Part shown: positions 1 to 749 of the stretch, one piece after another
Layout: the number at the start of each line of letters is the position of its first letter
Numbering within the stretch: the first letter of the stretch is position 1
Source of the DNA: an uncultured archaeon
GTDB lineage: Archaea > Aenigmatarchaeota > Aenigmatarchaeia > GW2011-AR5
Length of the DNA stretch: 11,523 bases
Direction: 5' to 3'
NCBI GenBank assembly: GCA_964373695.1
Contig: CAYJVT010000025.1
Coordinates: 1-11,523, forward strand
The notes under the pieces: model-generated
The model's input: only the letters and a program-made list of their open reading frames with translations
The model's database searches: none
Told to the model about the DNA's origin: nothing
Program-made: the position numbers and the translations under genes

Positions 1-36
1 TGGGCCCGACGGGATTCGAACCCGCGACTCCCTGCT

Positions 37-78
37 TTCTCCCCTTTGCTGGCGCAAAGTCGAGGCCATTTTACGGGG
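37..78 (-). other. canonical 37/38 tRNA intron (42 nt) in tRNA-Lys
   Basis: BHB with central helix CTCT/GGAG (one G-U), bulges TA|C and AA|A, outer helices from the anticodon stem and CC/GG. Internal hairpin CTTTGC-GCCA-GCAAAG. Confidence 0.93.
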
Positions 79-95
79 TAAGAGGCAGGTGCTCT

Positions 96-140
96 CTCCT
101 GAGCCTTTCCGCAAGCGCTTTTGTATGAGCAAAAGGGCTT
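96..140 (-). other. non-canonical D-loop (20/21) tRNA intron (45 nt) in tRNA-Lys
   Basis: BHB with central helix CCTG/CAGG, bulges GT|A and AG|A, inner helix AGCC/GGCT, outer helix D-stem GCTC/GAGC. Excision restores the standard D-loop AGCCTGGTA. Confidence 0.92.
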
Positions 141-169
141 ACCAGGCTGAGCTACAGGCCCATGACGAA

Positions 170-190: not shown

Positions 191-290
191 CTGCGTATAC
201 TCCTCTTCTATCAGCGCGCTAAAGCGCTTTTATTATTTACAAAACTTACACCCTTCAAATAAGCGCCTCGGCCGGGATTCGAACCCGGGT

Positions 291-321
291 TTGCCAATCG
301 CCATCCAACCATATGGCAATT
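291..321 (-). other. non-canonical variable-region (45/46) tRNA intron (31 nt) in tRNA-Asp
   Basis: BHB with central helix GCCA/TGGC, bulges TG|A and AA|A, inner helix ATTGCCA/TGGCGAT. Excision restores the short variable region TGAC. Confidence 0.9.
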
Positions 322-362
322 CATGGCCGTGACAGGGCCATATGCTAGGCCACTACACTACC

Positions 363-381
363 TTTGCCGCCATTTCTGGCT
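363..381 (-). other. acceptor-stem (5/6) tRNA intron (19 nt) in tRNA-Asp
   Basis: AC-TGCC-TC|A-GCCA-GAAA-TGGC-GGCA-AA|G-GT. Central helix TGCC/GGCA, two 3-nt bulges, inner helix GCCA/TGGC capped by a GAAA tetraloop, outer helix AC/GT. Excision joins GCCTC+GG, the exact complement of the 3' strand CCGAGGC. Confidence 0.88.
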
Positions 382-424
382 GAGGCAGTTTCACCACAAG
401 GCAATTGAGTCATTGATTTATTCG

Positions 425-433
425 TATTTAAAA
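425..433 (-). promoter_or_regulatory. probable TATA box for tRNA-Asp (or the Asp-Lys pair)
   Basis: TTTTAAATA on the minus strand about 40 nt upstream of tRNA G1. This predicts a start near 402 and a leader of about 16 nt. Confidence 0.5.
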
Positions 434-749
434 TTTGTTTTCTTTGCGAAATAGTAGTTCTAGGCATGCAATATCCCCATTTTAGCCATACCGCTATTTT
501 TATCAGATGTTTTTCATTTCTGAATCCAATAGAATCCATCCATTTGAATAAATTTTCCTTCCCATATATGTGGATACCGTATTGGACAGTTTTTTTGCCA
601 TATATTAGTCTTTCTCTTGAAAAGACATTGGATTTAATATCAAATTTTATTAACAGTCTTTTTATATCATTTACAAGAAGCCTTTCAGATATCGCTGTGC
701 ATAAAATCAAGTTTTTTGTTTTGTTGTTGCATGTTTGACGCCTCTATTG

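Follow-up and report, generated by a model that had tools for sequence, protein, structure and literature searches.

The stretch of DNA analysed here (11,523 nucleotides; the ‘window’) comes from the genome of an archaeon of the Aenigmatarchaeota, within DPANN (G000: 1.02 Mb in 60 contigs, 91% complete, 48.6% G+C). From 386 down to 264, on the reverse strand, it carries what we hold with good confidence to be a working, and apparently the only, tRNA-Asp(GUC) gene of that genome, with two protein-spliced bulge-helix-bulge (BHB) introns at positions 5/6 and 45/46 (Table 1). The exons are all contiguous and in normal order within 123 nt, and the gene is thus neither split nor permuted. Its identity as tRNA-Asp is given by the anticodon arm (a 5-bp stem, UGGCC/GGCCA, with the 7-nt loop CUGUCAC), the T arm (CCGGG-UUCGAAU-CCCGG) and G73; from 362 onward exon 2 reads GGUAGUGUAG... 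and then enters the D arm. When spliced in silico, the product is identical at 67 of 73 positions to the intronless tRNA-Asp of a relative (G012), and at 61-67 of 73 to four intronless tRNA-Asp genes of the order.

Around 100 nt downstream, a tRNA-Lys(UUU) gene with at least two inserts (window 1-161, reverse strand) reaches the edge of the window; this Asp-Lys pair is syntenic over much of the order, and the two genes often abut directly.

Table 1. Features of the tRNA-Asp locus, in window coordinates
Feature	Position	Strand	Remarks
tRNA-Asp(GUC) gene	264..386	(-)	123 nt, two introns; mature tRNA 73 nt, CCA not encoded
Exon 1, GCCUC (tRNA positions 1-5)	382..386	(-)	pairs with GAGGC at the 3' end
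Intron 1, 19 nt, AGCCAGAAAUGGCGGCAAA, position 5/6 of the acceptor stem	363..381	(-)	strict 3-4-3 BHB; contains the hairpin GCCA-GAAA-UGGC, and GGCA as one strand of the central helix of the BHB
Exon 2 (positions 6-45): remaining acceptor strand, D arm, anticodon arm	322..362	(-)	anticodon GUC at 333-331
Intron 2, 31 nt, position 45/46 of the variable loop	291..321	(-)	BHB, 8-bp h' helix
Exon 3 (positions 46-73): T arm, 3' acceptor strand CCGAGGC, discriminator G	264..290	(-)
Leader bases -3 to -1 (ACU)	387..389	(-)	complete the BHB: U-1 for its central helix, A-3 and C-2 for its outer helix
Spare copy of the 5' acceptor strand in the leader, GCCUUGUGG	394..402	(-)	7 bp with CCGAGGC, one bulged U
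TATA-like box TTTAAATA, likely promoter of the tRNA-Asp transcript	425..432	(-)	46 nt before position 1

Four carriers of the 5/6 insert enter into the comparisons that follow: G000 itself; G001 (JACPAH01) and G023 (JACQNX01), both Candidatus Aenigmatarchaeota archaeon from Northern California groundwater; and L114, a 1-kb contig from Hainich groundwater in Germany.

Predicted excision of the acceptor-stem insert and its splice motif

Removal of exactly the bases 381-363 brings GCCUCGG opposite CCGAGGC in a 7-bp acceptor stem made of Watson-Crick pairs throughout, with G73 following the 3' strand; alternative excisions cannot restore this stem, because the junction bases permit no sliding. A sequence-only reading of the window had proposed a 19-nt insert at this place, splitting GCCTCGG at 5/6, with a GAAA tetraloop and a perfect 7-bp stem upon exact excision, and each of these points is confirmed. 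The site of insertion is 5/6 and not 3/4, which sets it apart from the 3/4 introns of Thermoproteales.

The target of EndA comprises two 3-nt bulges with a 4-bp helix between them, and is cut after the second base of each bulge (PMC4090602, PMC3239211). In an exhaustive scan of the precursor for BHB geometry, the central helix (H) is formed by U(-1)G1C2C3 with GGCA (intron bases 14-17), giving four Watson-Crick pairs, flanked by the bulges U4 C5|A and A A|G6; the inner helix (h') is the 4-bp GCCA/UGGC, closed by the GAAA tetraloop, and the outer helix (h) consists of two pairs, C-2:G7 and A-3:U8. The cuts predicted from this geometry, C5|A and A|G6, fall at exactly the boundaries that restore the stem, such that two independent criteria (the predicted cleavage sites and stem restoration) are in agreement. 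Shuffling the insert 300,000 times retained the 4-bp helix in register in 5,876 cases (2%), of which 24 also had an inner helix of at least 3 bp; none reached the 4 bp or more that is observed.

The same reading had called this a ‘textbook’ BHB, and the description stands for the 3-4-3 core, but not for the surroundings: the outer helix of three carriers (all but L114) has just two pairs, and leader bases -3 to -1 are required to build the motif. It is of the strict hBHBh' form, with the short outer helix placing those three carriers near the relaxed HBh' form. As the BHB uses bases -3 to -1, it cannot form on an end-matured tRNA, and splicing would therefore have to precede maturation of the 5' end. 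Within these three bases, A-3 and U-1 are invariant in all four carriers, and position -2 is either C or a U that still pairs with G7.

A competing, slipped helix of 7 bp (ACUGCCU with AGGURGU) counts against the motif: in unconstrained local folding it reaches -14.6 kcal/mol vs -9.0 kcal/mol for the local BHB (5.6 better), and it dominates the predicted ensembles of G000 and G023, so that either folding of the D arm or the enzyme itself would have to outcompete it. A self-splicing group I or group II intron was also considered and rejected, the insert being 19 nt long vs the hundreds of nucleotides of a catalytic core; an Rfam scan of the window returned tRNA only.

The second intron (321-291) has the motif GCCA UG|A ... 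UGGC AA|A with an 8-bp inner helix, and sits at 45/46, which is among the usual sites of non-canonical introns (PMC4090602). G001, of the same genus, lacks exactly these 31 nt and has UGAC as its variable loop, whilst in G023 the central helix of intron 2 covaries with the anticodon stem (GCUA with UAGC).

Gene detection, apparent uniqueness and processing enzymes

The earlier expectation that tRNA finders would mishandle such a gene is borne out for ARAGORN and the Rfam tRNA model, which either miss or mis-start it. With default settings ARAGORN reports no tRNA in the window, and with introns allowed it returns a nonsensical tRNA-Asn(AUU) with a 2,381-nt intron; the Rfam model gives a match at 367-264 scoring 39.3 bits, with the wrong 5' strand (GCAAAGG). 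tRNAscan-SE 2.0 extends its candidates by 60 nt in search of introns near the ends (PMC8450103).

It could be argued from this low score of the unspliced gene, and from the 91% completeness of G000, that we are looking at a decaying pseudogene, or at an insert that is never removed, with the functional tRNA-Asp residing in the unassembled 9% of the genome. We consider this hardly credible. Three independent assemblies (G000, G001 and G023; 91, 81 and 77% complete) contain the same split gene, and a search of each with an intronless tRNA-Asp as query found no second one; nor does G000 hold another GUC anticodon arm in a tRNA context, such that this is the only tRNA-Asp found in G000, and likewise in the other two. 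In addition, exons, splice motif and promoter are intact and conserved, the 5' strand chosen by the model for the unspliced gene makes three mispairs, and interrupted genes are usual in this organism: 21 of the 23 tRNA-model matches in G000 span more than 80 nt, making intron-interrupted tRNA genes the norm there. A split 5' strand is found in one of its 42 T-arm candidates, that of tRNA-Asp; in the other G000 tRNA genes with an identified 5' strand, the strand continues straight into the D arm. On these sequence comparisons, the 5/6 insert is a real and conserved intron that belongs to a known class, occupies a rare position and is very probably functional.

Splicing endonuclease and ligase are both encoded in G000. 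A single gene for EndA (C2:46161-46745, equivalent to L141:1222-1806; 194 aa) matches both Pfam domains, with 96.5 and 62.5 bits, and is nearest to the alpha4 enzyme of M. jannaschii. As the alpha4 type is classically thought to require strict motifs (PMC5829648), this affiliation counts against the splicing proposed here. Immediately before the catalytic histidine there is a lysine-rich insertion of six residues (LKKGPK...), at a site that is occupied in other lineages by the specificity loops L1 and L2 (PMC5829648). Kaneta et al. have described loop-bearing alpha4 enzymes of DPANN archaea as accompanying heavily disrupted tRNA genes (PMC5829648), and G000, with most of its tRNA-model matches spanning more than 80 nt, fits that pattern. 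The ligase RtcB is present with 485 bits; it is encoded in one 989-aa open frame (C31:6291-9113) that matches profile positions 1-51 and 48-426 with ~480 residues in between, an interruption which is probably an intein. A candidate RNase P RNA (C27:9696-10038) covers the whole archaeal model (1-288) with 71.5 bits, below the gathering score of 84.

The EndA gene lies within 1 kb of a tRNA-Asn(GUU) gene (C2:45652-45809) that has a long D-loop insert. This tRNA-Asn has an intact GCCUCGG/CCGAGGC and G73, i.e. an acceptor stem and discriminator identical to those of tRNA-Asp, and the identity of the two stems would suit a route to Asn-tRNA via a non-discriminating AspRS.

Carriers and relatives

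In G001 the 5/6 intron is identical over all 19 nt. G023, from another genus, has an intron of 20 nt with a different loop and a 3-bp inner helix, in the same register; that of L114 is 18 nt long, with a 3-bp h', a 6-bp outer helix and AU|G as its second bulge. The first pair of the inner helix is A:U in L114 vs G:C elsewhere, amounting to one compensatory double change. Central helix and bulge core are retained in all four carriers, across which 97% of the BHB pair cells are paired, covariation among four related sequences not being significant alone; the carriers are kin, and their number overstates their independence. An extra 17-nt insert, absent from the other carriers, is found in L114 within the 3' portion of the D arm (L114:49-113, reverse strand; after ...CUAGCA).

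The 70 genomes of the order yielded another 41 tRNA-Asp genes, every one with an uninterrupted 5' strand; such introns as these genes contain occupy the D-loop, the T-loop, 37/38 or 45/46. Many of the genes directly precede tRNA-Lys(UUU), at the same Asp-Lys locus as in the window; orthology of this locus, combined with the intact strands, indicates that the 5/6 insert is a true and lineage-restricted insertion.

Searching one genome per prokaryote species for the pattern TGCCTC..GGCANNGGTRGTGTAG gave 57 matches, of which 55 are chance occurrences in bacteria (approximately the number expected) and the remaining two are G001 and G023; no other case of the 5/6 motif was found in that set. A scan of metagenomes added L114 as a real carrier; its other match, the GC-rich L115, is due to chance. 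Across 371 genomes of the phylum a looser pattern yielded no further case; it proved too permissive, with forward counts about equal to those of the reversed control, and the eight candidates inspected from it were coding sequence and not tRNAs.

The spare acceptor strand in the leader

The leader of all four carriers contains, at -15 to -17, a spare copy of the 5' acceptor strand, reading GCCUUGG in G001 and G023, GUCUCGG in L114, and as listed in Table 1 in G000. In three of the four this copy is complementary to CCGAGGC at seven out of seven positions, and in G000 it forms seven pairs with one bulged U. Among the non-carrier tRNA-Asp genes, a seven-out-of-seven complement within 40 nt upstream occurs in none (0/41), and a six-out-of-seven complement in six.

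Folding energies were calculated for the precursors of G000, G001 and G023; L114 was omitted, as its 3' acceptor strand lies past the end of the contig. When the leader is part of the molecule, each of the three full precursors has a minimum-energy fold in which spare strand and 3' strand are paired; the G001 fold further shows three elements of the BHB, namely central helix, bulge 1 and inner helix. If the cloverleaf arms are fixed, a BHB combined with spare-strand pairing is more stable than the closed acceptor stem by 4.6, 7.0 and 8.4 kcal/mol in the three precursors, whereas the BHB without that pairing is less stable than the closed stem by 4.5, 5.8 and 3.5 kcal/mol. In the predicted ensembles, the central helix has a probability of 0.23, 0.95 and 0.12 when the leader is present; cutting the leader to -6 lowers this to 0.03 or less, and the true acceptor stem then has a probability of 0.89-0.98.

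A perfect TATA box, located (as were the others) by consensus score, starts 30 nt before the spare strand in G000, the distances in G001 and G023 being 30 and 34 nt. Other G000 tRNA genes with a clear TATA box have it 32-36 nt before position 1. The distance from TATA box to spare strand is thus the usual distance from TATA box to tRNA 5' end, which very probably puts the spare strand at the start of the transcript.

From these findings we tentatively propose, at just short of an even chance, that the spare strand is a dedicated ‘placeholder’, which holds the 3' end of the tRNA, lets the real 5' strand build the splice motif and then yields. The alternative that we weigh most seriously, and regard as plausible though somewhat short of probable, is that the spare strand has no role in splicing and is an original 5' end left stranded after an insertion or duplication, with the intron spliced unaided; its origin is perhaps tied to a decayed homing-endonuclease gene just upstream. 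The spacing of the TATA box fits this equally well, since the box is as far from the spare strand as it would normally be from the start of a tRNA. Directly next to the promoter there is a LAGLIDADG-like remnant, a paralogue of which lies inside a tRNA-Leu intron of G000. Over their whole length the leaders of G000, G001 and G023 resemble one another, and this agreement may reflect kinship; the spare strand may, in other words, have been inherited and not selected.

Against a mere relic stand three observations. The leader of L114 is otherwise unrelated, yet ACU at -3 to -1 and the full complement of the spare strand are kept, with the wobble positions differing (GUCUCGG vs GCCUUGG); on comparison of the leaders, this is the best single argument for selection on the spare strand. 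All changes within the spare strands are from C to U, with pairing to G preserved. Finally, the calculations above give the spare strand a large effect on formation of the motif. Being a relic and being a helper are, in any case, compatible with one another.

As for the mobile-element remnant, the match to LAGLIDADG_3 is weak (window ~480-690, reverse strand; E = 0.004, 17.8 bits, below the Pfam cut-off) and falls in a frame just upstream of the tRNA-Asp promoter; the paralogue (G000, C12:12560-12826) shares 36% identity over 89 aa, and is next to or inside its tRNA gene. Compared with G001, G000 has ~660 bp extra between conserved blocks at window 1400-1186 and 525-341, upstream of tRNA-Asp, a difference that hints at mobile-element traffic at the locus, without explaining the intron. 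A search of the 3 kb upstream of the gene for a stranded old 5' end with D arm found chance 7-mers only.

Two non-carriers, G060 and G036, also retain extra copies of the strand, which speaks for the stranded-end explanation; such copies thus occur outside the carriers too, and the arrangement is perhaps an old one. In G060 (L123, G060:C13), a tandem partial copy, GCCTCG-T-GCCTCGG, directly precedes tRNA-Asp, a gene that has a long T-loop intron. In G036 (L040, G036:C110, reverse strand), GCCTCG-T-GCCTC-A-GC...GGCAAAAAGGTA is found ~70 nt before an intronless tRNA-Asp, followed after 12 nt by the intact 5' end. The part of it after GCCTCG, TGCCTCAGC...GGCAAAAAGGTA, is a decayed look-alike of exon 1, the 5/6 intron and the start of exon 2, with GCCTCG itself resembling the spare strand. 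In its present state the look-alike forms a perfect hairpin of 7 bp (UGCCUCA/UGAGGCA), and it may be a trace of the loss of a 5/6 intron in another family of the order.

A comparable arrangement is seen at tRNA-Tyr of G000 (C36), where a near-copy of the acceptor strand (TCTCCGA vs CCTCCGA) occurs 63 nt upstream, with a TATA-like box ~30 nt before the copy and not before the gene; the copy could be a further example of a spare strand, or else an old 5' end that was left stranded.

We also asked whether the spare strand might itself serve as an alternative 5' exon, with GCCUU (GUCUC in L114) joined to G6 upon removal of a 34-35-nt intron, at the cost of one G-U pair in the acceptor stem. A U precedes the copy in G000, G023 and L114 and allows a 4-bp helix to GGCA (UGCC, or UGUC with one G-U in L114), and the BHB scan of L114 does list this alternative, with h = 2 and h' = 2. 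In G000, G001 and G023, however, there is no h' helix and the scan does not list it; the base before the copy in G001 is a C, which mispairs with A; the copy in G000 has an extra U; and with the proximal exon both motif and stem are perfect in every one of the four carriers. We therefore think such use of the copy very unlikely.

Discussion

We outline here the probable sequence of events by which the tRNA-Asp precursor would be matured. Bases -1 to 3 (UGCC) would pair with the GGCA close to where the intron ends and thereby present the two 3-nt bulges, EndA would cut each bulge behind its second base (C5|A and A|G6), and RtcB would ligate C5 to G6. The perfect 7-bp acceptor stem could close only after ligation, whereupon RNase P would remove the leader. 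We suggest, on about an even chance, that in the precursor the spare copy at -16 to -8 holds the 3' acceptor strand. Such pairing would free the real 5' strand for the motif and, once splicing is complete, the real strand, with its fully Watson-Crick pairing, would displace the spare copy. In this scheme the excision, the succession of processing steps and the transcript start are all inferred from the DNA sequence.

Introns of the acceptor stem have precedents. The 3/4 introns of Thermoproteales tRNA genes, which the sequence-only reading had named correctly, are presented as an extreme case in a review (PMC4090602, citing Sugahara et al. 2008); a 2025 paper includes the acceptor stem among intron sites (PMC12397907), and a small number of acceptor-stem sequences are noted briefly in a 2026 preprint that deals with Asgard tRNA genes. 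In the literature that we searched, to which the primary intron catalogues did not belong, we found no published intron at 5/6 of tRNA-Asp, nor, in that literature, a description of a placeholder in a tRNA leader.

The Thermoproteales introns share with the present case a protein-spliced BHB intron within the 5' acceptor strand, and a geometry that makes the central helix borrow bases from the leader, such that splicing comes before 5' trimming; they differ in that they are found at 3/4, in a crenarchaeon with an (alpha-beta)2 enzyme, whereas here the intron is at 5/6, in a DPANN archaeon with a single alpha4-like EndA. The tRNA genes of ARMAN-2 and other DPANN archaea (Fujishima et al. 2011, PMC3239211; Kaneta et al. 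2018, PMC5829648) are closer in setting, being those of ultrasmall archaea in which most genes are interrupted, with several introns per gene, non-canonical sites and one versatile EndA. The introns described for ARMAN-2 lie in the T-loop (53/54, 59/60) and at 37/38, however, with none reported in the acceptor stem (PMC3239211), and its EndA is of the three-unit epsilon2 type. The split and permuted tRNAs of Nanoarchaeum equitans, Caldivirga and Thermofilum (PMC3218864, PMC4033280) likewise draw on sequence beyond the mature tRNA to build the BHB, but in our case the exons share one transcript in normal order, and the flank contributes three bases of the motif and possibly the placeholder.

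An intron at 5/6 interrupts the very helix that is read by RNase P, by the CCA-adding enzyme and by the aminoacyl-tRNA synthetase, and does so in an essential single-copy gene. The dependence of its motif on the leader predicts that splicing takes place before 5' maturation, an order that is not obligatory for ordinary archaeal introns. From such genomes tRNA-Asp may be reported as missing, with distorted inferences about completeness and translation capacity in DPANN archaea as the result.

Should the spare strand indeed be a placeholder, it would explain how a small, alpha4-like endonuclease copes with introns that destroy the acceptor helix of the tRNA. It would then amount to a built-in RNA ‘chaperone’ switch, one that enables introns in the acceptor stem and fixes splicing before the trimming of the ends.
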